A stretch of 64,000 bases of DNA, from the NCBI GenBank assembly GCA_030390025.1, contig CM059432.1, positions 96,598,001-96,662,000 of the forward strand, read 5' to 3'. Position numbers and translations under genes: made by a program. Below, one piece after another: positions 82 to 64,000 of this stretch; position 1 is the stretch's first letter, and every line of letters starts with the position of its first letter. The notes beneath the pieces are model-generated. The model saw only the letters and a program-made list of their open reading frames with translations, was not told the DNA's origin and did not search any database. Source of the stretch: Squalus acanthias (Eukaryota).

Positions 82-329
82 TGTAAGATTCTAAACACGT
101 AATAAAACCGCTGCTACCGTGTGGAGATCGAAATTGCGAACAAATTGTGAGATGGTAATGGACGGATTTAAAATGGAGGAAGTCAGCATGTGTTCCTTTG
201 TCGGTAAGGATTTAGAACATAAGAAATTTTAAAATTAAAAAAAAGAACATAAGAAATAGGAGCAGGAATAGACCACTTGGCCCCTCGAGCCTGCTCCGAC
301 ATTCAATAAGATCATGGCTGATCTTGGGC

Positions 330-3100
330 TCAAAGCCACTTCCCTGCCTGCTCCCCATAACCCTTCACTCCCTTATCTTGCAAAAATCTGTCTATCTCCA
401 CCTTAAATGTATTTAATGACCCAGCCTCCACGGCTCTCTGGGGCAGAGAATTCCACAGATATACGACCCTCTGAGAGAAGAAATTTCTCCTCATCTCAGT
501 TCTAAAAGGACGACCCTTTATTCTGAAACTATGCCCCCAAGCTCTAGATTTCCCCACGAGGGGAAACATCCTCTCTACATCTACCTTGGCGAGCCCCCTC
601 AGTATCTTATATGTTTTAATAAGATCATCTCTCATTCTTCTAAATTCCAATGAGTATAGGCCCAACCTGCTCAACCTTTCTTCATAAGTCCAACCCCTCA
701 TCTCTGGAATTAACCTAGTGAATCGTCTCTGAACTGCCTCCAATGCAAGTATATCCTTCCTTAAATAAGGAGACCAAAACTATACGCAGTACTCAATGTG
801 TGGTCTCACCAATACCCTGTACAGTTGTAGCAGGACTTCCCTGCTTTTATACTCCAACCCCCTTGCAATAAAGGCCAACATTCCATATGCCTTTTTGATT
901 ACTTGCTGTACCTGCATGCAAACTTTTTGTGTTTCATGCACAAGGACCCCCAGGTCCCTCTGAACTGTAGCATTTTGTAATCTCTCTCCATTTAAATAAT
1001 AATTTGCTTTTTCATTTTTCCTGCCAAAGTGGATAACCTCGCACTTTCCCACATTATACTCCATCTGCCAAATGTTTGCCCACTCACTTAGCCTGTCTAT
1101 ATCCCTTTGCAGATTCTTTGAGTCCTCTGCACAACTTGCTTTCCCACCCATCTTTGTATCATCCGCAAACTTGGCTACATTACACTGAGTCCCGTCATCC
1201 AAGTCATTAATGTAGATTGTAAATAGTTGAGGCCCCAGCACCGATCCCTGTGGCACCCCACTAGTTACCGTTTGCCAACCGGAAAATGACCCATTTATCC
1301 CGACTCTCTGCTTTCTGTTAGTTAGCCAATTCTCTATCCATGCTAATATATTACCCCCAACTCCGTGAGCTCTTATCTTATGCAGTAACCTTTTATGTGG
1401 CACCTTATCGAATGCCTTCTGGAAATCCAAATATACCACATCCACTGGCTCACCTTTGTCCACCCTGCTCGTTACATCCTCAAAGAACTCCAGCAAATTT
1501 GTTAAACATGATTTCCCTTTCATAAAACCATGCTGACTCTACTCGACTGCATTATGATTTTCTAAATGCCCTGCTACTGCTTCCTTAATGAAGGACTCTA
1601 GCATTTTCCCAATGACAGATGTTAGGCTAACTGGTCTATAGTTTCCTGCTTTCTTTCTCCCTCCTTTCTTAAATAGGGGTGTTACATTTGCGGTTTTTCA
1701 ATCCGCTGGGACCTCTCCAGAGTCCAGGGAATTTTGGTATATTGCAACCAATGCATCCACTATCTCTGCAGCCATTTCTTTTAAGACCCTGGGATGCAGG
1801 CCATCTGGTCCAGGGGACTTGTCATCTTTTAGTCCCATTATTTTACCAAGTACTTTTTTCTTAGTGATAGTGATTGTCTTTAGTCCCCCCCGCCCTGTGG
1901 CCCCTTGATTATCCATTATTGGGATGCTGTGAAGACAGATACAAAATATTTGTTCAGAGTCTCTGCCATTTCCCCGTTCCCCATTATTAATTCCCCAGTC
2001 TCATCCTCTAAGGGACCAACGTTTACTTTAGCTACTCTCTTCCTTTTTATATACCTGTAGAAGCTCTTACTATCTGTTTTAATATTTCTTGTCAGTTTAC
2101 TCTCATAATTCATCTTCTCTCTCTTTATTATTTTTTTAGTCATCCTTTGCTGTTTTTTTAAAAATTCCCAATCCTCTGGCCTCCCACCAATCTTGGCAAC
2201 ATTGTATGCCTTTGTTTTCAATTTGATACCATCCTTTACTTCCTTAGTTAGCCACGGATGGTGCTCCCTTCTCTTAAAATCTTTCTTTCTCACTGGAATA
2301 TATTTTTGTTGAGAGTTATGAAATATCTCCTTAAATGTCCGCCACTGCATTTCAACTGTCTTACCCTTTAATTTATTTTTACAGTCCACTTTAGCAAGTT
2401 CTGCCCTCATGCCATTGTAATTGCCTTTGTTTAAGATCAGGACACTGGTTTGAGATATAACTTTCTCACCCTCCAACTGAATTTGAAATTCAACCATGCT
2501 ATGATCACTCTTTCCTAGAGGATCCTTTACTATGAGATCATTTATTAATTCTGTCTCATTACACAGTACCAGATCCAAGATAGCCTGTTCCCTGGTTGGT
2601 TCCATTACATACTGTTCTAGGAAACCATCCTGGATACACTCTAGGAACTCCTCCTCAAGGCTACCATGGCCCATTTGATTTGTCCAATCAATATGGAGAT
2701 TAAAATCACCCATGATTATTACCATACCTTTTTTACAGGCCTCCATTATTTGTTGATTTATACTCTGTCCAACAGTATTGCTGCTGTTCGGGGGCCTGTA
2801 GACTACGCCCACCAGAGACTTTTCCCCCTTATTATTTTTTATCTCCACCCAAACCGATTCTACATCTTGATCTTCTGAGCCAATATCACTTCTCACCACT
2901 GCACTGATCCCATCCTTTACCAACAAAGCCATCCCACCCCCCTTTCCTTTCTGTCTATCCTACCGAATTGTCAAATACCCTGGAATATTCAGTTCCCAGC
3001 CCTGGTCACCTTGCAACCAACTCTCTGTAATGGCGATCAGATCATACCCATTTGTATCTATTTGTGCCGTCAACTCATCTATCTTGTTACGATTGCTGTG
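330..3100 (-). pseudogene. CR1 ORF2 (APE endonuclease + reverse transcriptase), disrupted
   Basis: ORFs 1916-2932 (VYRPP, GDFN, SDH), 1698-1916 (KSPGPDG), 780-1523 (GVPQGSVLGP, KFADD) and 330-743, separated by stops and frameshifts. Confidence 0.93.
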
Positions 3101-9137: not shown

Positions 9138-10013
9138 GGGGGAAAAATTCAGTATCGCCCCGTTTGGGGCGCAATTATCAGCTGGGCGCAAAGATTCGTG
9201 CCTGGCGCTAATTATCGCCTCCGACTGCAAACTTGACTTTTATCGCCCCTGGAGTGGATTGGAGCGTTAAGTCAGGCGCTACACATCTGTCTTAAGGCGC
9301 AAAGGCCGAGGAGCGAGGCGCTAACTCAGAGCGTTGGCGAAGCTCATGTGATGTCAGTCAGCAATGGAACACAGACACAATGGCCCCGGCCAGTTCTTAA
9401 AGGGGAGGGTTGATCCTGCTTTCCATCCACATCCTGCTCATTGCAGCCTTGAATCTCGGCCTGGAGACCTGTACATCAAATCTGCTGGAAAGAACAATGG
9501 AGAGTACCAGGGAAAGAGCTCAGAGTGCAGCCCCCACAGTCTCTTCTAAATCGATACAAGGAAGGGCAAATCAAAATGAACCTGCAAAGTGCTGCTCAGT
9601 ACCCAAAACTCCTTGACACAGCGTTGAATCTCTCCAGAAGTCTCTCTCTCTCTCAGAATGCGTGGTTCAAAAATGTCGCCAACAAAAAAAGGCAGGAAGC
9701 GGTCGCCTTTAAATAGCGCTCGCCCAGTATCTTCCTGACAGCAAAACGCTCCCCTCAACCTGTCGTTGCTAGCGGCAGTCGGTAAGGCAGGGGGCGCCAC
9801 TCAATATCCACTCCGGGGCGTTGCGCACTCGACTGACGTCACGATCTGCCGGCACAGGAGATCGTGGCGGTACTGTTTAGCGCCGCCGCAGAATGTCTAG
9901 TTAATTTCGCGAGCGGCGCAAACATTGCCGCGCCCGGGCGCTAGATGCTTTGCGCCCCATTAGCGCCCTCTTAAGGCGCTAACGGGAGGTGCAACCAACT
10001 GAATTTTCCCCCC
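9138..10013 (+). mobile_element. Non-autonomous Harbinger element (deletion derivative of the 42542-46708 type)
   Basis: TIRs GGGGGAAAAATTCAGT / ACTGAATTTTCCCCCC, TAT target duplication at 9135-9137 and 10014-10016, and both arms homologous to the ends of the full element. Confidence 0.92.
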
Positions 10014-37429: not shown

Positions 37430-38440
37430 GGAAAACAGAAAATGCTGGAAATACTCAGCAGGTCAGGCAGCATCTGTGGAGACGGAAAGAGAGTTAACGT
37501 TTCAGGTTGATGACCCTTCATCAGAACTGGAAAAAGCTGGAGATGGAACAGGTTTTTAAGCAAGTGCAGGGGCAGGGAAAGGGGGGAGGGGAGGAAAGAA
37601 CAAAAGGGAAGGTCTGTGATAGGATGGAAGGCAGGACAGATTGAGAGACATTAAGAGATGCTGCAAGGCAAAAGGAGATGGTAATGGGACAAGTTAAGAA
37701 ACAAAAGATGGCTCTAGATGAAGTGTAAAAAAAAAATGAATGGGAAAAAAAGAATAGGGGCAGAGGTTATGGTCTGAAATTGTTGAACTCTATGTTGAGT
37801 CCAGAAGGTTGTAAAGTGCCTAATAGAAAGATGAGATGCTGTTCCTCGAGCTTACGTTGAGCTTCATTGGAACAGTGTAAGAGGCCAAGGACGGTGAGGT
37901 CTGAGTGAGAGTGGAGTGGAGAATTAAAGTGACAGACGACCGGAAGCTTGGGGTCACCCTTACGGACTGAATGGAGGTGTTCCGCAAAGCAGTCACCCAA
38001 TCTGCATTTGGTCTCCCCAATGTAGAGGAAACCGCATCGTGAGCAGCGAATACAGTATAATGTGGTCTCCTCTACATTGGGGAGACCAAATGCAGATTGG
38101 ATGACCGCTTTGCGGAACATCTCCGTTCAGTCCGTAAGGGTGACCCCAAGCTTCCGGTTGCCTGTCACTTTAATTCTCCACTCCACTCCCACTCAGACCT
38201 CACCGTCCTTGGCCTCTTACACTGTTCCAATGAAGCTCAACGTAAGCTCGATGAACAGCATCTCATCTTTCTATTAGGCACTTTACAGCCTTCTGGACTC
38301 ATCATAGAGTTCAACAATTTCAGACCATAACTTCTGCCCCTATTCTTTTTTTCCCCATTCATTTTATTTTTTATTTTTTTTACACCTCATCTCGAGCCAT
38401 CTTTTGTTTCTTAACTTGTCCCATTACCATCTCCTTTTGC
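37430..38440. mobile_element. Penelope-like 3' fragment (-, 37430-38058) joined head-to-head to an inverted copy (+, 38061-38440)
   Basis: The GIY-YIG C-terminus is encoded on both strands (ORFs 37767-38120 on - and 38097-38330 on +). Confidence 0.9.
37491..37530 (-). ncRNA. Minimal hammerhead ribozyme in a Penelope 3' region
   Basis: Minus strand reads AGTT-CTGATGA-AGGGTC-atc-AACCT-GAAA-CGTT-AACT. Confidence 0.72.
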
Positions 38441-42530: not shown

Positions 42531-42902
42531 TATGACTCTATGGGGGAAAAATTAGGTCGCGCCCCGTTTGGGGTGCAAATATGATCTGGACGCAAATATT
42601 AGCGCCTGGCTCTAATTATCGCCACTGACTGGAAACTTCACTTTTACCGCCCCGGGAGGTGAGTGGAGCGCTAAATCAGGCGCTGCACACCTGTCTTAAG
42701 GCACAAAGGCCGAGCAGTGAGGCGCTAACTCAGCGCGCGAGCGCAGCGCAGGTGCTGCCAGTTAGCGAGGGAACACAGACACACTGGCGCCGGCCAGTTC
42801 TTAAAGCGGGGGGGGGGCCAACTTGCTCCCCAGCCACACCCTGCTCATTGCAGCCTTGAATCTCGGCCTGGAGAGACCTGTGAATCCATTTTGCTGCCAA
42901 GG

Positions 42903-44723
42903 ATGGAGAGGGTGAGAGAACGAGCTCAGCGCTTCACCGAGCGGGCCTTGGATGCTCTGGTTGGTGCGGTGGAGCGCAGAAGATGTATACTCTTCCCTGA
43001 GAGTGGCAGGAGGCCTTTGCCACGCGAGTACAGAAGAGTGTGGAGGGAGGGGGCTCAGAGCGTCTCCTCCAGGAACATGGTGCCCAGGACCCATGTTCAA
43101 TGCCGCAAAAAGTTCAACGACCTCACTCGGGTCGTCAGGGTGAGTGGCTTTTTCTCAATACCTCTCCATCCCTCCATCTCAACCTCACTCTATGGCCAGA
43201 GGGTCTTAAAACCCCAATGCACAACACTCATCCAACACCTATGGCTCTTTCATGAAACACACACACACATTCCACACTTTGCATACAGTAAGGGCTATTC
43301 ACCTATGGGAGGCACATCAGGCAAGACCATGGCTGCATACAGTAAGGGCTATTCACCTATGGGAGGCACATCAGGCAAGACCATGGCTGTATATTTACTC
43401 AGATGCTGTCCTTTTTCTTGCAGGCCAAGCTGGCGCATAATCGGAGACAGCAGCAACGGACAGGTGGAGGGCGGCCTCAGCTGCAACCCCTCAGCGATCT
43501 TGAGGAGCGCGTCCACAGGATTGTGGCAAGCCGGGTGATCGGTCCCGTCGCCACTGGAGACGCTGACCCCGTTCTGGACAGCAATGGTAAGGTCATCACC
43601 TTTTTGTCCTTTGTCCTTCCACTTGTCCCTCACAACACCAGCCTTTGACACTTTCAATCCAACTTGCTAACTCGCTGCACTTATTCCTCCCTTACTGCCA
43701 CCCTGTCCTCACGCTAAAGCCACTCTTGTACCTCCCTGCTTTCAGACGGTGATTCACCAGCTGAGGAGACGGGCCCTGAAGCTGCCAGTGGGAGTGAAGC
43801 TGCAGCCGAGGAGGAAGAGGAAGCCGGAGCATCAGTGCCACCCTCTCCCGAGGAAGCCCATGCCCACACTGGGAACACGCCTTCCCTGGAGGGGAGCAGG
43901 GGGGAAGGGTCTGATGAGGGTGAAGCTCCAGGACCCAGCGGGCTGCAGCAACGCCATGGGGGGTAGGGAAGAACGGGGGCCTTCTCCCCAGAGGGAGAGT
44001 AGGCCAGAGACTCCTACTGCAATGGACGCAGAGGAGGAGCGGCTGATCGCAGAAATGAACACCCAGGCGGTGGGCATGCACACTGAGCTCATGGGTGCAG
44101 TGGGAAGGGTGCCCGAATGCATTGAGTCACTGGCAAGGAGTGTGGAGCACTTCGCTGTAGCACAGGCGGATGCCACACTAAAGCTTAGTGCTGCAATTCA
44201 GTCACTGACTGCCGTGATCCCATCTCTGACTGCTCTCATGCAGACTCAGATTGAGGCCACGCGAGCACTGACTGCTGCCAACCTCGATGGTTCGTTCACA
44301 TGTCCCCGGGGCTCTCACTGCGCCGCAGCAGGCCAGCAATCTGTGCTCCAGCAGATTGCTCCGGATGCTGAAGTGCTGCCCCGTGGGAGTGCCAGTGTGT
44401 CGGGCGAGCAGGGAGTTGCTGTCCTCTCTCACGATGACAGCATTCCTGCTGCCAACACTGTCACTTCTCCACTGCACTTGCCACCGCCTGTAGGACAGAC
44501 TGCTGCCGCCCATGCAGAGTTGGTGCAGTCTGCAGCCGGGCCCTCCAGGCCCAGAACTGGTCGAGGCCGTCCTTCAGGGGCATCTGCAGTGTCAGGGTCT
44601 GACGATCAGCAGCCTTCCACCAGCCTTGCTGCAGCTACTGAGGTCCCATTACGGAGGAGCAGTAGGGTTAGAAGGGGGGAAGTGCGCAAGGGAAGGAGAT
44701 CACCCTCGAAGGGCAAAAAGTAG
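42903..44723 (+). CDS. Harbinger Myb/SANT-like DNA-binding protein, three exons (42903-43139, 43424-43586, 43746-44723), with one +1 frameshift near 43960
   Basis: RFTERALDALV...VWRE...QCRKKFNDL; GT-AG introns with matching phases 0 and 1; basic C-terminus. A G6 run breaks the frame. Confidence 0.82.
43281..43388. repeat. Exact 54-bp tandem duplication in intron 1 of the Myb gene
   Basis: gcatacagtaagggctattc...ccatggct occurs at 43281 and 43335. Confidence 0.92.
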
Positions 44724-44967
44724 GAGGTGTGACAAAATGCTGGTCATTTTTTTATTAAAGGCCGAGGTTCGTGGTCCAACTTTTGTCTAGTGTTTTGGAC
44801 ATTATCTCCAGGTTGTGAGAACCAGTTATGTTAATGACTGTTTTTTTGTGTTTATTTCTATGAGTTTGTCATGAGGAAATGACACACACAGAGTTTGTAA
44901 AATAAATAAGTTTTTGTATTCAAAATATACATGTTTGGTGTTTGGAATCATTGGTGCCTTGGCCGGC

Positions 44968-46125
44968 TTAGGGGTTGCGTGCTGGGTTCATTGATGTTGT
45001 TAGCAATGGCAGAAGCCATTTCCACAGCAGGGGCCCAAGAAGCGGCTTTGCTATCAGCCGTTGATGGGCGGCCCTTGCAGTTTCACCATTGTGGGCCGCC
45101 CTCCCGCCTTGGTGCTGCTTATGATCATCCTCCTCGTCCTCTTCCTCCTCTTCCTCCTCCTCCTCTGGTGGTGCTCCAAGGCCTGGTGGCATTGGCTGGG
45201 TCCTGACGATTGCCATGTTATGCAACATGCAGCACACAACTACGAAGTTGGATACTCGCTCAGGCGAGTACTGCAGGGCTCCTCCAGAATGGTCGAGACA
45301 GCGGAACCGTTGCTTCAGCACGCCGATTGTACGCTCAATGATGTTCCTGGTAGCTTGATGGCTCTCGTTGTACCGCAGCTCAGCAGGGGTGTTGGGCGTA
45401 TGGAGCGGTGTCATCAGCCAGGTGCTCAATGGATACCCCTTGTCCCCGAGAAGCCAACCAACTGGCTGATGCGGTGCCTCGAAAAGTTCTGCCACAGTAG
45501 TCTGGCGCAGGATGAAAGCATCGTTGCAGCTGCCAGGATAGTGGGCATTGACAGCGAGTATCAGCTGTCTGTGGTCACAGACCAACTGAACATTCAAGGA
45601 ATGGAATCCCTTTCTGTTCCGGAATTCCTCGGCATTCTCATGTGGAGCACGCAAAGCCACATGCGTGCAGTCAATGGCGCCCTGCACCAAGGGGAAGCCC
45701 GCTATCCTCGCAAAGCCCAGAGTGCGGTCACGCTGCTTGTCTGGGGTCATGGGGAAAGAGATGAACTCTCGTCTCCTTTTAAAGAGGGCATTTGTGACCT
45801 GCCGGATGCAGCAATGCACCGCGAACTGGGAGATATTGGCGAGGTCCCCAGCAGCAGCTTGAAATGAGCCAGTAGCATAGAAGTTGAGAGCCACTGTGAC
45901 CTTCACTGCCACCGACAGAGACGTCCTGGACCTCAGTTGAGACTGCAGATCTGGCTGCAGCAGGTGGCAGAGCTCAGTGACCACCTCCTTGCTGAATCGC
46001 AGCCTTCGCAAACACAGCTCCTCAGACATATGAATGTAGGAGAGCTGTTCACGATATACCCTGGGAGGGTAAGCTCTCCTGTACATACGCCTGTTGGCCC
46101 TCCTCCGTCTGGCCATCATTGCCAC
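44968..46125 (-). CDS. Harbinger (HARBI1-like) DDE transposase
   Basis: GAIDCTHV, NRKGFHSLNVQLVCD, LLGDKGY, IERTIGVLKQRFRCL and CCMLHN, with an acidic tail. The extreme N- and C-termini may be frameshifted. Confidence 0.93.
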   Translation of the reverse strand: MAMMARRRRANRRMYRRAYPPRVYREQLSYIHMSEELCLRRLRFSKEVVTELCHLLQPDLQSQLRSRTSLSVAVKVTVALNFYATGSFQAAAGDLANISQFAVHCCIRQVTNALFKRRREFISFPMTPDKQRDRTLGFARIAGFPLVQGAIDCTHVALRAPHENAEEFRNRKGFHSLNVQLVCDHRQLILAVNAHYPGSCNDAFILRQTTVAELFEAPHQPVGWLLGDKGYPLSTWLMTPLHTPNTPAELRYNESHQATRNIIERTIGVLKQRFRCLDHSGGALQYSPERVSNFVVVCCMLHNMAIVRTQPMPPGLGAPPEEEEEEEEEDEEDDHKQHQGGRAAHNGETARAAHQRLIAKPLLGPLLWKWLLPLLTTSMNPARNP

Positions 46126-46803
46126 TCTCTCTCTGCATCTCTGCGTCCTCCGATTCAGCTAGAGAAGGACGACGCCCCCAATCAGTGCAGCCCCATAGTC
46201 TCTTTGCAAGCAAAGTTATGAAGGACAGCAACCAAAGTACCAGCGAAGTTAGGATCAGTAGGCAAAACTACCTCACACAGCGTTGACTCAATGCAGAAGT
46301 CTCTCTTTCTCTCTCTCCGAATCTCTCTCTCTCTCTCAGAACGAGTGGTGCAAAAATGTCAACCACAGAAAAAGACAGGAAGAGGCCCCCTTTAAATAGC
46401 ACCCCCCCCCAGCCCCACAGTGATTGATAGCGTTCCAGTCTTCCGGTCGTTGGATGCGCCAGGCGGTAAGGCAGGGGGCGCCACTCAATTTCCGCTCCGG
46501 GGCACCACAAGGGCGTTGCACCATGGAATGACGTCACAATCTGCGCGCGCAGGTGGTCGCAGCGGTAAAGTTTAGCGCCGCCACACAATGTCTAGTTAAG
46601 TTCCCGAGCGGCGCAAACATCGCTGCGCCCGGGCGCTAGCGGCTTTGCGCCCCATTAGCGCCCTCTTAAGGCGCTAACGGGAGGCGCAACCAACTGAATT
46701 TTTACCCCCATGACTCTTAATCCACCATAGAAACTAAGGAAATAACAACAGAAAACGCTGGAAAAACTCAGCAGGCCAGGCAGCATCCTTGGAGAGAGAA
46801 AGA

Positions 46804-46842
46804 GAGTTAACGTTTCAGGTCGATGACCTTTCGTCAGAACTG
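46804..46842 (-). ncRNA. Minimal hammerhead ribozyme
   Basis: Minus strand reads AGTT-CTGACGA-AAGGTC-atc-GACCT-GAAA-CGTT-AACT, with an intact core. Confidence 0.8.
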
Positions 46843-47121
46843 TGAAGAGCCGGAAATCAAATAGATTTAAGGCCAGAGTAAAGCTGGGAAAAGGGGGAGG
46901 GGATAAAAGAACAAAGGGGGAGATGAAGAGACATTAAGAGACATTAAGAGATATGCAAGGCTAGAGGTGGTGTTAATGTGACAGATTAAGGCTGAAAGAA
47001 GCGTGAAATCCACTGGCAGAATGAAGGACAGCTGCCAGCTTCTAGGAGGAAAAAAAAAGGTGGGGTGGGGGGCAAATAAAAGGGTGGAAAAAATAAAATA
47101 TAAATGTGATTGGAGCTGAGG

Positions 47122-48486
47122 TTATGATCTAAAATTGTTGAACTCGATATTGAGTCCAGAGGGCTGTAGCGTGCCTAAACGAAAGATGAGGTGCTGTTCC
47201 TCGAGCTTACGCTGCGCTTCCGTGGAACAGTGTAATAGGCCGAGGACGGTGAGGTCAGAGTGGGAGTGAAGCGGTGAATTAAAGTGACAGGCCACCGGGA
47301 GCTCGGGGTCCCCCTTACGGACTGAACGGAGGTGTTCCGCAAAGCGGTCACCCAATCTGCGTTTGGTCTCCCCAATGTAGAGGAGACCACATCGTGAGCA
47401 GCGAATACAGTATACTAAATTGCAGGAAGTACAAGTAAATCGCTGTTTCACCTGGAAGGGGTGTTTGGGGCCCTGGACAGTGGGAAGAGGGGAGGTGTAA
47501 GGGCATGTGTTGCATCTCCTGCGCGTGCACGGGAAGGTGCCGGGCGAAGGGGAAGGGGTGCTGGGGGTGGTAGAGGAGTGGACTAGGGTGTCGCGGAGGG
47601 AGCGGTCCCTGCGGAATGCTGAAAGGGGAGGTGAGGGGAAGATGTGTTTGGTGGTGGGATCACGCTGGAGGTGGCGGAAATGGCGGAGGATGATCCGTTG
47701 AATGTGGAGGCTGGTGGGGTGAAAGGTGAGGACAAGGGGAACCCTATCGTGGTTCCGGGAGGGAGGGGCAGGGGTGAGGGCAGAAGTGCGGGAGATAGAA
47801 CAGACACGGTCGAGGGCCGTGTCAACCACGGTAGAGGGGAATCCTCGGTTGAGGAAAAAGGAAGACATGTCGGAAGCACTGGTATGGAAGGTGGCATCAT
47901 CAGAGCAGATGCGGCGGAGACGGAGAAACTGGGAGAATGGAATAGAGTCCTTACAGGAGGCGGGGTGGGAGGAAGTGTAGTCCAGGTAGCTGTGGGAGTC
48001 AGTGGGCTTGTAGTGAATGTTAGTCAATAACCTATCCCCAGAGATGGAGATGGAGAAGTCGAGGAAGGGAAGGGAAGAGTCGGAGATGGACCATGTGAAG
48101 GTGAGGGAAGGGTGGAAATTGGAAGCATAGTGAATGAAATGTTCTAGTTCAGGGCGAGAGCAGGAGACGGCACCGATACAGTCATCAATGTACCGGAAAA
48201 AGAGGTGAGGGAGGGGACCCGAGTAGGACTGGAACAAAGAGTGTTCCACATATCCCATGAAAAGGCAGGCATAGCTAGGACCCATGCGGGTACCCATAGC
48301 AACACCTTTGATTTGGAGGAAATGGGTAGAGTCAAAGGAGAAGTTGTTCAATGTGAGAACAAGTTCAGCCAGGCGGAGGAGGGTGGTGGTGGATGGGGAC
48401 TGGTTGGGCCTCTGTTCAAGGAAGAAGTGGAGCGCCCTTAGGCCATCCTGGTGGGGAATGGAGGTGTAGAGGGATTGTACGTCCAT
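47122..48486 (-). CDS. Penelope-like RT (N-truncated) + Cys linker + GIY-YIG endonuclease
   Basis: MDVQSLYTSIP, GVAMGTRMGP, RYIDD, CxxxxCxxC and LVYCIRCSRCGLLYIGETKR, uninterrupted over 454 aa. Confidence 0.93.
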   Translation of the reverse strand: MDVQSLYTSIPHQDGLRALHFFLEQRPNQSPSTTTLLRLAELVLTLNNFSFDSTHFLQIKGVAMGTRMGPSYACLFMGYVEHSLFQSYSGPLPHLFFRYIDDCIGAVSCSRPELEHFIHYASNFHPSLTFTWSISDSSLPFLDFSISISGDRLLTNIHYKPTDSHSYLDYTSSHPASCKDSIPFSQFLRLRRICSDDATFHTSASDMSSFFLNRGFPSTVVDTALDRVCSISRTSALTPAPPSRNHDRVPLVLTFHPTSLHIQRIILRHFRHLQRDPTTKHIFPSPPLSAFRRDRSLRDTLVHSSTTPSTPSPSPGTFPCTRRRCNTCPYTSPLPTVQGPKHPFQVKQRFTCTSCNLVYCIRCSRCGLLYIGETKRRLGDRFAEHLRSVRKGDPELPVACHFNSPLHSHSDLTVLGLLHCSTEAQRKLEEQHLIFRLGTLQPSGLNIEFNNFRS

Positions 48487-48619
48487 AGTGAAGAGGAGAC
48501 GGTTGGGGCCGGGAAACTGGAAACTGTTAAAATGGCGGAAACTAAGGAGGCAGGCAACAAAAAATTAACTTTAGCGATCAAGATTGCTGGTTAATACTCT
48601 GGAGAAATCTTTACATAAA

Positions 48620-57527: not shown

Positions 57528-58472
57528 AAGGAGCTTGAATTTGCAACTCCGTGATGCAAGACACTTTTTCTTGACTCAAATGCTCCTATGAATTTAATTT
57601 CTTTCAGTGGAGATTTTCTCTTCATTATCTTTAGATTTTAGGGTGAAGCTTCAGGCTTTTTTTCTGAAGTTTTATACATCATTATTCATCTCTGGCAAGA
57701 TTTATACAAATTAAATGGTGCAAACTGTACATGGTCTGTTGAAGAACCAGGGTCGATGGACTAAATGGCCTCTTCTAATTTCATATGTTCTTATGTTACC
57801 AGGAAGCTGGATTTGAAGACAGTGACCATTTGCTGCTGAGGGGTGCTTAAAGCTATTTCTGACTGAGGATAGCTAAAGAACCATTTGAATTTGAAACAGT
57901 CCTCATTAAAGCAAGTCAAAAAATTGTTACAATTAAAATTTAAGTTATTTTATTTTAACCAGATGATTACACATTTGTGGTATAAATTCAGTGGAAAACT
58001 GTAGAAAACTGAATTCACTCCACTCTGTTCAGGAGTTTAATTCAATCATGATTTTACTCATGCATTACCAGTTCTTCCAAACTGTTTGAATAGAATCTGT
58101 GTTGCAATTTCCCAGTGAGTATTCTCTATTTATTCCTTGAAACTGAATGTGCCTTCCAGTTTAATTTCAATGTACAAGGGGGAAAAATTCGGTTGCTTTG
58201 CGCCTCCCGTTAGCGCCCTAAGAGGGCACTAATTGGTTGCAAAGCAACTAGCGCCCAGGCGCGGCGATGTTTGCACTGCTCGTGGAATTGACCAGACGTT
58301 TTGCAGTGGCGCTAAACACTACCGCCACGATCTCCTGCGCCCGCAGATCATGACGTCAGTCGAGCGTGCAACGCCCCGGACCGGATATTGAGTGGCGACC
58401 CCTGCTTTTCCGCCTGCTGCTAGCAACGACAGGTTGAGGGGAATGTTTTGCAGTCGGGAAGGGACTGGGTGA

Positions 58473-58678
58473 TGTAAGAAAACTACTAGGCACTTGGTCT
58501 AAGCGTTAAACAAAGCTTTAATCAACTGTTTTCCAACATTGAGATCTAGTTGTGTCCTTCACTAGTTCCTGTTGAGGAATGTCCTAAGCAAGCTGGGCCC
58601 ATGCCCGAGTATTTATACTCTCCCTGGACAGCGCCATCAGCAGGCCGGCCAGTATTACTTCATACAAGATTCATGTCA
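58473..58678 (-). repeat. Gypsy 3' LTR
   Basis: TG...CA termini, preceded by the PPT; about 185 bp shared with 63534-63718 with 5 substitutions. Confidence 0.9.
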
Positions 58679-58694
58679 TTCTTCCCGCCTGAAA

Positions 58695-61047
58695 GATTGG
58701 AAGTCTACCGAATTAGCCGGACTAAGAATAGACGCAGTCATTTGGATTTCCGTTGGAGGCCGGAAGGCATGTCTCCTCGGACCGTGTTTTGGTCCCTGGG
58801 TCACTTGGTTCGTACCAGCGGGCTGGCAGAGTCTGTGTCGCCTTGATCGACCCGAGGGGGACTGGGGAGATCATGGCTCCGGGTGCGGGTCCCCACCGGC
58901 ACAGAGCTGGCTTCATCCTGCTCAGTAGTCGGTGATTGACCGGTGTCCTGGCTTCGGGTGGCCATCCCACGGGGAGCGCTCTGTTCCCCGGGTTGATCCA
59001 GTGGAGTAGCTGGCAGATCCCTTGATGTCCCCGGGTAGGGCGTCATCCTCGGAGGAGCGCAGATTATCAGCGTCGTTAATACGGATCTCTATCGATTGGG
59101 TCCGTGGGACCGGTTGGGCAGGGAGTCAGATCCCGAAGTGAAACTGTGGACTCCCGGCCATTAGGGTACCGCACGTACACGTATGTAGGATTGACATCCG
59201 TTAGTTCCACCTCGTCGACGAGGGGATCACTCTTGGAGGATCGGACGAATCTTCGGAGCAGCACGGAGCCAGGAGCTGCCAACCATGATGGTAGGGACGT
59301 CCCATGAGTGGAGCGACGCTGGAACCCGAAGAATCATTCGTGAGGAGTAACATTGGTGGATGTAGAAAGAAGAGACCTGATGGAATGCAACGCGTCAGGG
59401 AGCATAGTTTCCCACTGCTGGTCTGGTAGATTGCGTGACCTTAGTGCAAGATGAACAGCGTTCCAAATGATAGAGTTGTATCTCTCAACCTGTCCGTTTC
59501 CAATAGGATGATATGGTGTCGTTTTACTTGTGGCAATTCCCCGTTGGTAAAGATAACTTTTGAGTTCGCTTGACATGAAGGAGGGACCCCGATCAGAGTG
59601 GATGAAATTGGCCGTACCGCAAAGGGAAAAGACCTGATCGAGGCATTTGATCACTGTGGAAGTAAGCATAGAGGGACAGGGGAAAGCAAAGGGAAAGCGT
59701 GAATATTCATCCACCATAGTAAGCAAGTAGGTGTTTCGCGTTGAGGAAGGCAATGGCCCTTTAAAGTCAATGCTGAGTCACTGCATAGGCTGAGTAGCTT
59801 CTATGAGCGAGCCATCCGACGGACGGAAGAGTTGTGGTTTTAATTCCGCGCAAACTCTACAAGTGGAGCATGTTCTTTTCACGTCTTCCGTAGAAAATGG
59901 GAGATTTTTAGATCGCACAAAGTGCAACATATGGGTAACGCCAGGATGGCATAAGTCAGTATGAAGATCCGCAAGAGTCGAAGTTGACATGGAAGAGCAG
60001 AATGCACGCGTGAGGGTATCCGGGGCCACATTCTCCTTGCCGGGTCGATACTGTATGGTGTAGCCAAAGGTGGCCAATTCCATCCTCCAGAGCTGTATTT
60101 TGTTGTTCTTGATTTTAGTGCATTTCCTGTTATCCAGCATAAAGGCCACCGAGCGCTGATCGGTTATGAGCGTGAAATGGCGACTAGCGAGAAAATGACT
60201 CCATTTACGTACTGCTTTGATGATAGCCGTAGCCTCCTTCTCGACAGGAGGATAATGGAGCTCGCTACCCTGCAACGTTCTAGACAGAAATGCAACGGGT
60301 CGACTGCCTTGATTCAAGGTAGCCGAGATCGCCACCGCCGATGCATCGCACTCGACCACGAAAGGGAGATTTTCATTGATGGAATGAAGCGCGGCTTTTT
60401 CCAGTTGTTGCTTGAGGAGGTCGAAAGCTGAAATAGCCCTCGCCTCCAACGGAAATGACTTCGCGTGAAGCAGGGGTTGGATCTTGTCAGAAAAGTGAGG
60501 TATCCACTTCGCATAATCGGTGAACATGCCGAGGGCCCGACGAAGAGAGCCGAGATTCGTAGGAGGAGGGAGCTCCTGAAGCGGACGAAGTCGCTCCAGA
60601 TCCGGTTTGAAGACACCATTGCCCACGCAGTAGCCAAGGATGTTGACTGATGGTACTGATTTCACAGATTTGGACTCATTTAAGGTTAAGTTGCGATGAC
60701 GGAGAACGTCAAGAAATTTCTGGAGGTTGGCATCATGCTCCTTCTGGTCATGACCAGCAATGGTGATATTATCCAGATATGGAAAAGTGTCTGTTAAGTT
60801 CTCCTGTTTGACTAGGCTATCCATTGCCCGTTGAAAGACGGCCACCCCATTGGTGACCCCGAATGGAAGGCGACGAAACTGGTAAAGCCGACCATTGGCC
60901 TCAAAAGCCGTATACTTTTTGTCAGAGTCCTTTAATGGTACTTGATGGTATGCGCTCTTTAAGTCAAAAGTTGAAAATACCTTGTAGTTAGCAAGGTTAT
61001 TGACCATGTCATCGATGCGTAGTAGTGGGTAGGCATCCAGGTCGGTA
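58695..61047 (-). pseudogene. Gypsy pol remainder: RT, RNase H and integrase with stops
   Basis: FDLKSAYHQ, LPFG, YLDN, ECDAS, HPG...CxxC, HSDRG and NGQVER; TGA stops at 59778 and 59334. Confidence 0.92.
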
Positions 61048-61915
61048 CGATAGCAAAATACTGCAGATGCTGGAAATCCGAAATAACAACAGAAATCGCT
61101 GGAAATAATCAGCAGGTCAGGCAGCATCCGTGGAGAGAGAAACAGAGTTAACGTTTCAGGTCGATGACCTTTCGTCAGAACTGGAAACAGCCGGAAATCA
61201 AATAGATTTAAGGCAAGGATAAAGCTGGGAAAAGGGGGAGGCGATGAAATAACAAAAGGAGAGATTAAGAGACATTAAGAGATATTCAAGGCAAGAGGTG
61301 GTGTTAATATGACAGGTTAAGGCTGAAAGAAGTGTGAAATCCACTGGCAGAATGAAGGACAGCTGCCAGCTTCTAGGAGGGAAAAAAAAAGGGGGGGGCC
61401 AAATAAAAGGGTGGATGAAAAAATAAAATATAAATGTGATAGGGGCTAAGGTTATGATCTAAAATTGTTGAACTCGATATTGAGTCCAGAGGGCTGTAGC
61501 GTGCCTAAACGAAAGATGAGGTGCTGTTCCTCGAGCTTACGCTGCGCTTCCGTGGAACAGTGTAATAGGCCGAGGACGGTGAGGTCAGAGTGGGAGTGAA
61601 GCAGTGAATTAAAGTGACGGGCGACCGGGAGCTCTGGGTCCCCCTTACGGACTGAACGGAGGTGTTCCGCAAAGCGGTCACCCAATCTGCGTTTGGTCTC
61701 CCCAATGTAGAGGAGACCACACCGTGAGCAGCGAATACAGTATACTAAATTGCAGGAAGTACAAGTAAATCGCTGTTTCACCTGGAAGGGGTGTTTGGGG
61801 CCCTGGACAGTGGGAAGAGGGGATGTATAAGGGCATATGTTGCATCTCCTGCGCTTGCACGGGAGGGTGCCGGGCGAAGGGGAAGGGGTGCTGGGGTTGT
61901 TGAGGAGTGGACTAG
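61048..61915 (-). mobile_element. 5'-truncated Penelope-like element inserted in the Gypsy RT
   Basis: 8-bp TSD ggtcggta at 61040-61047 and 61916-61923; closely matches 46741-47589. Confidence 0.93.
61145..61183 (-). ncRNA. Minimal hammerhead ribozyme
   Basis: Same intact CTGACGA...GAAACGTT motif as 46804-46842. Confidence 0.8.
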
Positions 61916-63443
61916 GGTCGGTATACAGGTTAATAGTTTGCGAGTAATCGATGCAAAGACGTTTCTTGTGTTGCTTCAGAGGATTTTTAACAACGACGAC
62001 TTGAGCCCACCAGGAAGATGAACATGGCTCAATGATACCGTCAGCTAGAAGGCGAGAGATCTCTGCCTCGATAAAGGATAGGTCATCTTGGCTGAAACGT
62101 CGTGATTTAGTGGCTATGGGCTTACATCGGGGGGAAAGATTAGCAAACAAGGAGGGCTCGTCGAGCGAAGCCGCCGAAAGTTCACAAAATGGTACTTTGG
62201 AAATAGTAAGCTCTGGCTTTGATCCTTCAAACTCGAAAGTGAGTTTTTTGTGTTGTTTCTGTAAATCCTGTCCCAGGAGCACATCACTGCATAGGTTTTT
62301 GAGCACCCCGAACCGCGTAGAGAAATAAGTGCGGCCATTGAGAATAAGGTCGACAAGACAAAAGCCGGAAGAGTTAGTGGTCAGTGTCGTCAGAGCCATT
62401 GCAATTTCCCTGTCTGAGGGGTAAATACGTAGTTTTAACTTACTGACAGCCTGCTCACTGATGAAGCTGTCAGAGCTGCATGAGTCGATTAATGCACTCA
62501 AAGTGTGTCCATTTACTGAAACCTTCGTGGCTGCATGGGACAGGCTTTGGGGAAAAACAGCTGTGATGGGTGGAGGGGCAGTTTTATCCTTGACAGCTGT
62601 AACATTAGTAGTGGCTCTTGGGGGAGGAGCAGTTTTATAGATGACAGCTGTAACCCTAGATGAGGCTCTTGACTGACATACTTTCGAGAAGTGACCTTTC
62701 TTACTGCAATGATTGCAGATTGCATTACGAGCAGGACAACATTTCCTATAATGAAATGCACCTCCACAGAAGAAACACTTCCTTTTAGATTGCCAAGATG
62801 CCGCTAGGGTAGGGTCGTCATCAGCTAGGATAGAGTCGTCATCAGTGAAGGCTTCCGCCTGAGGCTTATCGGAGTAGTCACTAAAAGTGATAGCAGCAGT
62901 CCGTGCACGTGGTAAAAGATAGGCATCTGCATTTTTTTTTGCCAAGTCCACAGAATATGCCTGGTCATAGGCAGCTTGTAACTCGAGGGTTTTATTCTGC
63001 AGCAGACGCTGGCGTATGAAGGGAGACGCAATTCCATTAATAAAAGAATCACGAATTAACTCCTCCTGGTACTGCTCAGCTGAGACAGCCTTGAGATTAC
63101 AATCTTTGCTGAGCCTGCGAAGCTTTTGAAGGAATTCGTCAAGTGATACCCCGGGTTGTTGTTGAGCTATGGCCAGTAGATGCCGAGCAACAATTTCATT
63201 TGGAGCCTTAACATATAGTTGCTGTAGTATTCGGATAGCAGAGTCATAGTTTACACATTCTTTGATATAGTCAAACACATAAGGGGATACATAATTGGCA
63301 AGTATCTCTAACTTATCAGGAACATTCTCACCACGTGCCCTGAGGTAGTTGCTGAAGGTACGATACCAGTGTTTCCATACCTTAGCAGTTGTAGGTGAAT
63401 TTGGGTCCAGGTCAAGACGGGTGGGTCGGAGTAGTTTCTCCAT
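61452..63443 (-). CDS. Chimeric 663-aa ORF: Gypsy Gag (zinc knuckles) + aspartic protease + RT N-terminus fused to a Penelope GIY-YIG endonuclease
   Basis: ATG start; CFFCGGAFH and CNHCSKKGHFSKVC; LIDSCS; LCIDY; then Penelope-derived sequence to its natural stop. Expression is unknown. Confidence 0.75.
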   Translation of the reverse strand: MEKLLRPTRLDLDPNSPTTAKVWKHWYRTFSNYLRARGENVPDKLEILANYVSPYVFDYIKECVNYDSAIRILQQLYVKAPNEIVARHLLAIAQQQPGVSLDEFLQKLRRLSKDCNLKAVSAEQYQEELIRDSFINGIASPFIRQRLLQNKTLELQAAYDQAYSVDLAKKNADAYLLPRARTAAITFSDYSDKPQAEAFTDDDSILADDDPTLAASWQSKRKCFFCGGAFHYRKCCPARNAICNHCSKKGHFSKVCQSRASSRVTAVIYKTAPPPRATTNVTAVKDKTAPPPITAVFPQSLSHAATKVSVNGHTLSALIDSCSSDSFISEQAVSKLKLRIYPSDREIAMALTTLTTNSSGFCLVDLILNGRTYFSTRFGVLKNLCSDVLLGQDLQKQHKKLTFEFEGSKPELTISKVPFCELSAASLDEPSLFANLSPRCKPIATKSRRFSQDDLSFIEAEISRLLADGIIEPCSSSWWAQVVVVKNPLKQHKKRLCIDYSQTINLYTDPSPLLNNPSTPSPSPGTLPCKRRRCNICPYTSPLPTVQGPKHPFQVKQRFTCTSCNLVYCIRCSRCGLLYIGETKRRLGDRFAEHLRSVRKGDPELPVARHFNSLLHSHSDLTVLGLLHCSTEAQRKLEEQHLIFRLGTLQPSGLNIEFNNFRS

Positions 63444-63486
63444 GATGGATTGATTACTATATCTGGTTCCCTTCTACCGTTTGAGT

Positions 63487-63718
63487 TGTAACCGTCTGCT
63501 CCCAAAACTACTCAGAGCGTGGAGCAGGTCCAGTTGGTCTAAGCGTTAAACAAAGCTTTAATCAACTGTTTTCCAACATGGAGATCTAGTTGTGTCCTTT
63601 ATTAGTTCCTGTTGAGGAATGTCCTAAGCAAGCTGGGCCCATGCCCGAGTATTTATACTCTCCCTGGACAGCGCCACCAGCAGGCCGCCCAGTATTACTT
63701 CATACAAGATTCATGTCA
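63487..63718 (-). repeat. Gypsy 5' LTR with a variant, longer U5 end
   Basis: Matches the 3' LTR up to agaccaa, then diverges but keeps agtagtttt and a terminal ttaca. Confidence 0.8.
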
Positions 63719-64000
63719 GGAAGGGACTGGTGGAGCGCTATTTAAAGGCGACCGCTTCCTGCCTTTTTTTGTCGGCGACATTTTTGCACCATGCATTCTG
63801 AGAGAGAGACTTCTGGAGAGATTCAACGCTGTGTGAAGGAGTTTTGGGTACTGAGCAGCACTTCGCAGGTTCATTTTGATTTGACCTTCCTTGCATCGAT
63901 TTAGAAGAAACTATGGGGGCTGCACTCTGAGCTCTTTCCCTGGGCGCCTCCATTGTTCGTTCCAGCAGATTTGATGTACAGGTCTCTCCAGGCCGAGATT

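Follow-up and report, generated by a model that had tools for sequence, protein, structure and literature searches.

The endonuclease (EN) of Penelope-like elements (PLEs) acts together with the element's own reverse transcriptase (RT) on PLE RNA, by target-primed reverse transcription. The PLEs of the Neptune/Nematis type are defined, in the available part of PMC8557442, by a CX2-5CxxC linker, a CCHH motif and the R, H, E and N residues of the EN. The PLE insertions described in the accessible text of PMC3846280 present target-site duplications (TSDs) of 8 to 10 nt, 5' truncation and microhomology at their junctions, and they occur nested in other elements, such as Pen2_Av of Adineta vaga, which lies in a non-LTR element. 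The Ty3/Gypsy (Metaviridae) elements with a single ORF are built differently, with long terminal repeats (LTRs) and one gag-pol frame in the order protease (PR), RT, RNase H and integrase. In the domesticated metaviral capsid genes ARC, PEG10, PNMA and RTL, a Gypsy-type capsid ORF, with protease, has outlasted pol, and most of these genes are syntenic, have an age of at least 100 My and evolve under purifying selection (PMC11011659, available portion). Finally, capsid-targeted viral inactivation, first used on Ty1 according to the available sections of the review PMC5035972, relies on engineered fusions of Gag with a C-terminal nuclease; these proteins are designed, and they carry non-specific nucleases or RNase H.

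The locus described here joins a predicted Gypsy capsid to a PLE nuclease. In the 64-kb window (the whole stretch of DNA that was analysed), a Ty3/Gypsy element on the minus strand carries inside its RT a PLE fragment of the same orientation, and the Gag-protease part of the first is read without interruption into the EN of the second. We consider, with a probability of about 0.82, that this fusion is an accident of the nesting, likely present as a single copy, decaying neutrally and without function. The fused ORF (61452-63443, minus strand) has 663 codons and runs from the native Gag start codon, an ATG at 63443, to a TAA at 61452. As the original prediction stated, it contains no internal stop, while the orphaned rest of pol downstream (RT, RNase H and integrase, 58680-61039, minus strand) has acquired two, at 59780 and 59336. 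The encoded protein consists of Gag, protease, an RT stub, 5 to 7 out-of-frame PLE codons, a Cys linker and the GIY-YIG domain; an exact look-up of this protein and of its counterpart from a sister PLE copy found neither of them.

All features of the fused ORF lie on the minus strand. Its N-terminus is predicted to adopt a capsid-like fold (aa 1-176, 62916-63443): the model of the first 178 residues has a pLDDT of 88.6, and the top three rows of the VIA structural search are all capsids, with modest scores, the domain matching dArc1 with a Z of 7.8 (rmsd 7.8 over 122 aligned) and the Copia capsid with a Z of 7.6 (rmsd 5.4 over 111 aligned). Foldseek returned 0 matches for this domain at E<=0.001, and the capsid assignment rests on VIA. 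Two CCHC zinc knuckles (aa 223-256, 62676-62777) precede a retropepsin-like protease (aa 307-394, 62262-62525; PF13650, E 3.6e-8), whose predicted fold resembles Ddi1 and the retroviral proteases in a Foldseek search with a 509-aa model, where the matches listed concern the protease only. The DSC motif of the protease (62475-62492) was considered as a trace of decay and rejected, since DSC is present in 30 of the 120 homologues. The N-terminal stub of the Gypsy RT (61917-62096) shows three departures from conserved residues, at aa 474, 477 and 479. The last part (61452-61859), which ends at the native PLE stop, comprises a CX4CX2C linker and a GIY-YIG endonuclease with the CCHH motif and the R, H, E and N residues; the Pfam GIY-YIG match at aa 565-601 is weak (E 4e-4, below the curated cut-off). 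None of the 23 strongly conserved EN columns is altered, either in this copy or in the sister copy, and a C-to-R change before the EN histidine, suspected of being damage, was discarded because R occupies this position in 3 of 17 EN homologues. In the next frame-continuous stretch after the fused ORF, Pfam recognizes RT, RNase H and the integrase zinc domain.

The PLE insertion (61048-61915, minus strand) measures 868 nt, is 5'-truncated and lies on the same strand as the Gypsy ORF. It shares 93% identity with a PLE copy, at 46739-47589, that belongs to a sister element (46739-48564, minus strand); this sister is itself 5'-truncated within its RT, retains 480 open codons and served as the comparison copy (hereafter the 47122 copy). 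The insert has the C-terminal GIY-YIG, the CCHH motif, the R, H, E and N residues and the CX2-5CxxC linker of a Neptune/Nematis-type EN+ PLE, and it shares with these elements, as far as the available parts of PMC8557442 and PMC4209133 describe them, the two Cys between GIY and YIG and a putative minimal hammerhead core. This likeness is one of motifs, and the insert differs from them in holding the linker, the EN and the 3' repeat only, with its RT lost. Among named proteins, the closest come from rays and sharks, with 59-65% identity, which makes a chondrichthyan genome probable. It is flanked by an 8-nt duplication, with the upstream copy at 61916-61923 and the downstream copy at 61040-61047 (minus strand), as against 8 to 10 nt in the nested EN+ PLEs of the available part of PMC3846280. 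At the 5' junction, the last 3 nt of the upstream TSD are also the PLE's own preceding 3 nt, which constitutes a 3-nt microhomology. Short TSD, 5' truncation and 5'-junction microhomology are thus common to this insertion and to Pen2_Av; unlike the nested PLEs of that source, the present one has Gypsy pol as its target, and its EN happens to come into frame with Gag-protease through a 1-nt gap. Independent support for the TSD came from contigs of the runs X2 and X16, in which 61039 is linked to 61916, 8 letters of the joint being ambiguous. At this joint, the uninterrupted Gypsy form reaches a depth of 230 in X2, and it is also present in record 13 of X16, with 197 and 169 nt flanking the joint. 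A Gypsy family with the uninterrupted form therefore exists in public contigs, and the nesting of a same-strand PLE fragment in the Gypsy RT, proposed from the sequence at the outset, is confirmed.

A hammerhead-like motif is a standard terminal feature of PLEs, and the PLE terminal repeat presents here a minimal one at about 61146-61183 (minus strand). Its core boxes and helix II were recognized by eye and by folding, its core is identical to that of the 47122 copy, and its cleavage is putative. The claim of an intact hammerhead in the new 3' UTR thus holds for the core read by eye and finds no counterpart in Rfam, which gave 0 matches at the gathering score in the window and a single chance match (E 8.3) around the motif. 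Since cleavage was not detectable for single minimal motifs in the available part of PMC4209133, the hammerhead is uninformative on the fate of the chimera. A tRNA scan returned 0 genes.

The host element has kept both of its LTRs, each with TG...CA ends. The 5' LTR (63482-63718, minus strand) lies upstream of the ORF, as originally described, with a TATA-like box near 63652-63658 and a putative promoter; the 3' LTR (58470-58678, minus strand) differs from it at 6 of the 188 alignable nucleotides (182 identical). The U5 of the 5' LTR holds in addition two segments, of 13 and 11 nt, that have no counterpart in the 3' LTR. The domain order, gag (capsid and CCHC) followed by PR-RT-RNase H-integrase, is that of the single-ORF Ty3/Gypsy elements, as indicated by Pfam, the knuckles and the capsid-like fold; a purine tract lies 5' of the 3' LTR, and no env was seen in the element. 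Two CCHC arrays are, in the accessible part of PMC2577118, a trait of the Mag and Micropia/Mdg3 lineages, to which the host element can be likened by this trait alone. Elements of corals, crustaceans and molluscs (among the 120 listed of 328 matches) share 50-55% identity with its gag-pol. The usual target-site duplication of Ty3/Gypsy elements is short, 4-6 nt. In contrast, the host-site duplication found here has 12 nt (58457-58468 and 63719-63730) and lies within a high-copy host repeat, and the element also differs from typical single-ORF members in that its pol is interrupted and stop-bearing; compared with the family contigs, the pol tail is further marked by indels at 59029 and 59085. 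The 12-nt duplication may result from recombination between two insertions, and the Gypsy element itself may be a recombinant. Together with the 6 differences in 188 nt and the two U5 gaps of the LTRs, this long duplication makes the dating uncertain.

The comparison of the fused ORF with the orphaned pol, which had been suggested as a check, gave a divided answer: two tests detected no constraint, and a third, made on a small subsample, gave p values of 0.04 to 0.09. The first test measured the divergence from the family contigs of X16 (three pieces for gag-pro and five for pol), which amounts to 31 of 1216 nt in gag-pro and 52 of 2144 nt in pol (Fisher p=0.82); these distances include the changes of the contig lineage itself, and the contigs, which contain the families, this copy not being demonstrable in them, may be of another species (the best run shares 0.48 of sampled words, and organisms A-G 0.34-0.48). 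Had selection removed half of the non-synonymous changes, about 19 differences would be expected in gag-pro, and the probability of observing at least 31 is 0.006, although constraint could be masked by faster gag evolution in active lineages. The second test counted departures at conserved columns. With 120 homologues and columns at least 90% conserved, we found 6 of 96 in the fused Gypsy part and 14 of 201 in pol (p=1.0), the corresponding counts being 4 of 73 and 5 of 128 at a cut-off of 95%, and 15 of 150 and 22 of 272 at 80%. With 263 homologues the figures are 4 of 74 against 10 of 173 in pol (p=1.0), and Gag and protease taken alone are slightly cleaner (1 of 53 against the same 10 of 173, p=0.47).

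The third test compared synonymous with non-synonymous changes, whose ratio is 7:6 in gag-pro and 2:14 in pol (Fisher p=0.04). It is based on 29 of the 214 difference sites: from the 40 that were listed, we excluded 10 in the tail, where the frame is uncertain, and 1 of the flank, which leaves 13 sites for gag-pro and 16 for the pol core. When restricted to sites differing in all three contig runs, the ratios become 6:6 and 2:12 (p=0.09). A context of CpG decay was found for 18 of the 39 listed differences inside the element. In the EN part, 11 of 148 codons differ between the window and the 47122 copy, by 6 non-synonymous and 5 synonymous changes. On balance, these sequence comparisons suggest no convincing selection on the fused ORF, the synonymous excess being the one hint that is left.

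The nesting and its TSD exceed chance; the open frame does not. At a neutral divergence of 1.6-2.5%, the probability that 663 codons stay free of stops is 0.18-0.34, and that of finding both stops in pol is 0.25-0.31. PLE tails are plentiful: six EN-bearing PLE fragments lie in the 64-kb window, three of them with a whole EN, and the summed depth of the PLE-tail contigs is about 75-156 times that of the Gypsy interior, a crude ratio that gives no copy number. A rough model in which we assumed 300-3000 Gypsy elements in the genome and 1-3 young EN-complete PLEs per 64 kb predicts that each genome would contain, by chance, about 1-35 gag-pro/EN fusions directly in frame. By our estimate, fusions requiring a compensating indel would be roughly ten times rarer, yet unsurprising, and the chance of such an indel falling in the short usable stretch would be a few percent, thus improbable, at any one locus.

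Further examples of the chimera, whose search had also been recommended, did not turn up. We used phmmer over 1.84 billion representatives (best 150 of 14,611 matches listed) and word-index searches, and among the 281 distinct proteins fetched, 263 present Gag-PR only, 18 EN only and none both. A weak search for the EN among longer proteins was likewise negative (0 of 137 candidates). Since the proteins searched include no close relative of the Gypsy family, this null result excludes a widespread fusion, not a local one. None of the 24 contigs listed, out of 143,508 pieces, spans the chimeric junction, contigs being able to show presence and not absence; the raw reads of X21 were excluded (32 partial, mostly unlike reads from another organism). 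A literature search over titles and the opening lines of abstracts retrieved no natural Gag-GIY-YIG fusion, and the Gag-protease-GIY-YIG domain order may be unrecorded.

At the junction, the PLE sequence is read out of frame, YTD-PSPLLNN-PST in the place of the TLVHSSTT-PST of the 47122 copy, and a 1-nt gap relative to the other PLE copies (61892-61901, minus strand), 14-23 nt into the insert and placeable either in a G-run at 61892 or at 61901, returns the reading to the native EN frame ahead of the CX4CX2C linker (61833-61859) and on to the natural stop; on both points the original description was accurate. Two origins can be considered for the gap, a real mutation and an assembly slip. If the nesting is real but the gap an assembly error in a G/C homopolymer, which seems to us improbable, the actual allele would lack the EN frame and finish with about 79 junk codons; in the junction frame, the 47122 copy does stop after 79 codons. 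The possible placement in the G-run is consistent with such an error, and so is the extra base carried at 61892/61901 by the PLE contigs, in about 97% of the depth in X16 (270.6+105.1 of 386.9, the depths at the two placements being summed by assumption), and in a smaller share in X1 (58%) and X2 (23%), where the placements with a gap are dispersed or incompletely counted. The PLE family therefore does not have the gap as its standard form; however, an extra base elsewhere is equally expected if the gap is a private mutation. Substitutions also adjoin the gap in the window copy, and 89 homopolymer runs of at least 4 nt in 6,093 nt of neighbouring frame-intact coding DNA present no frameshift, an argument that favours a real mutation and is partly circular, as these stretches were picked as open.

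If the gap is real, the fusion might be expressed from the LTR and selected for, in the role of a natural capsid-targeted nuclease acting on its own Gypsy family, a reading to which we give a small probability. The Gag-PR-EN protein would co-assemble with the family's Gag, its protease would free the nuclease in the particle, and the family's cDNA would be nicked, so that the family would be restricted. By analogy with the engineered fusions, which share the architecture of Gag with a C-terminal nuclease and inhibit MLV (PMC5035972, available sections), the fused ORF, if expressed, would act as a Gag-nuclease fusion; those were designed, whereas the present chimera is natural and read from sequence alone. 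The capsid-like fold, the knuckles, the protease fold and the EN residues all look intact as modelled, the native Gag start codon is in use, and the synonymous excess of gag-pro points in the same direction. Nevertheless, divergence is not reduced, conserved columns are not spared, and a second copy or two-part homologue was not found among the 281 fetched proteins. Moreover, the ancient and syntenic domesticated capsid genes (PMC11011659, available portion) differ from this chimera, which is about 2-3% from its family, still has its two LTRs and the whole of pol, and presents no constraint that we find convincing. The original suggestion of a capsid-forming, protease-processed nuclease thus keeps its inferred domains and is weakened by the two selection tests in which the ORF decays as the orphaned pol does. 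Fainter still is the prospect that the chimera is an incipient mobile unit, with an RNA that intact members of the family would package and reverse-transcribe in trans, and an EN that perhaps substitutes for integrase as GIY-YIG-bearing Gypsy copies spread. Both LTRs, the purine tract and the atypical 12-nt host-site duplication would agree with it, but the form found at the joint is the uninterrupted one, the divergence of the LTR pair and its two U5 gaps argue that the copy has not moved recently, and the RT partner of the PLE EN is absent.

A young accident, named from the start as the other possibility, fits best. Any young PLE tail lying in a young Gypsy copy should show an open frame and a hammerhead; the fused ORF and the orphaned pol decay equally in two of three selection tests, and no second example was found. 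We infer that the Gypsy copy inserted first, and that a nick in the Gypsy RT then served for the target-primed reverse transcription of a PLE RNA, which would have halted early, at 868 nt, the 5' end of the PLE being presumably joined via microhomology. This insertion would have severed RT, RNase H and integrase from Gag, and so ended autonomous mobility. The base was probably lost by slippage in the short G/C run, at or after the insertion or already in the donor copy, and the ORF would owe its openness solely to the youth of the element (about 2-3% diverged), in which this frame has so far been spared a stop. Provided that the LTR remains transcribed, an mRNA with a 3' UTR of about 2.9 kb would yield a Gag-PR-EN by-product. 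The likely outcome is a non-autonomous element whose first ORF ends in a nuclease by happenstance.

Understood as an accident, the locus illustrates cleanly how new domain orders can arise at no cost when retroelements insert into one another in a repeat-rich genome, and it calls for caution, an open chimeric frame in a young element being a weak sign of function. If the fusion were expressed and selected, the nuclease of one element would have been turned on another through its capsid, by the host or by a transposon. The capsid-targeted reading, if true, would provide a natural counterpart of the engineered Gag-nuclease inhibitors, caught at birth, and, improbable as we hold this to be, a new kind of transposon-derived restriction factor in a cartilaginous fish.

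The Ty3/Gypsy copy lies within a high-copy host repeat, further copies of which are found in the window at 9464-9994 and 46191-46712. It is flanked by a 12-nt duplication (58457-58468 and 63719-63730) in place of a short target-site duplication, and the U5 regions of its two LTRs differ by two gaps (58470-58490 versus 63482-63530), through which most of a short inverted repeat present in U5 is missing from the 3' LTR. The element may be a recombinant between two insertions. In contigs from two public sequencing runs (X1 and X2), possibly of other species, the summed depth of the LTR bins (58487-58673 and 63536-63722) exceeded that of most of the Gypsy interior more than 10-fold, which suggests the existence of numerous solo LTRs or of related LTR families.

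Inside the Gypsy ORF, the linker between Gag and protease carries a tandem repeat (62568-62651; about 17 codons, in frame), which was found in none of 15 aligned homologues and within which some family contigs present compensating indels at 62642/62644. The protease motif (62475-62492) is often DSC in this lineage, rather than DSG or DTG (30 of 120 homologues).

Other Penelope-like sequences were also encountered. Two 3' fragments form a fold-back pair at 37434-38370, with 311-nt arms spaced by 22 nt and 94% complementary. The search for homologues of the GIY-YIG endonuclease retrieved a ray gene model (P0124, "divergent protein kinase domain 1C isoform X2") which contains Penelope-like RT sequence at its start together with the endonuclease match; this model is probably a mis-joined or exonised Penelope-like element in that annotation. 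Finally, the interval 42729-46158 is spanned by a Harbinger-type transposase (DDE_Tnp_4, 44968-46158, minus strand) and a Myb/SANT ORF facing it (42729-43538, plus strand), and the sister Penelope-like copy (46739-48564, minus strand) is located a short way beyond.
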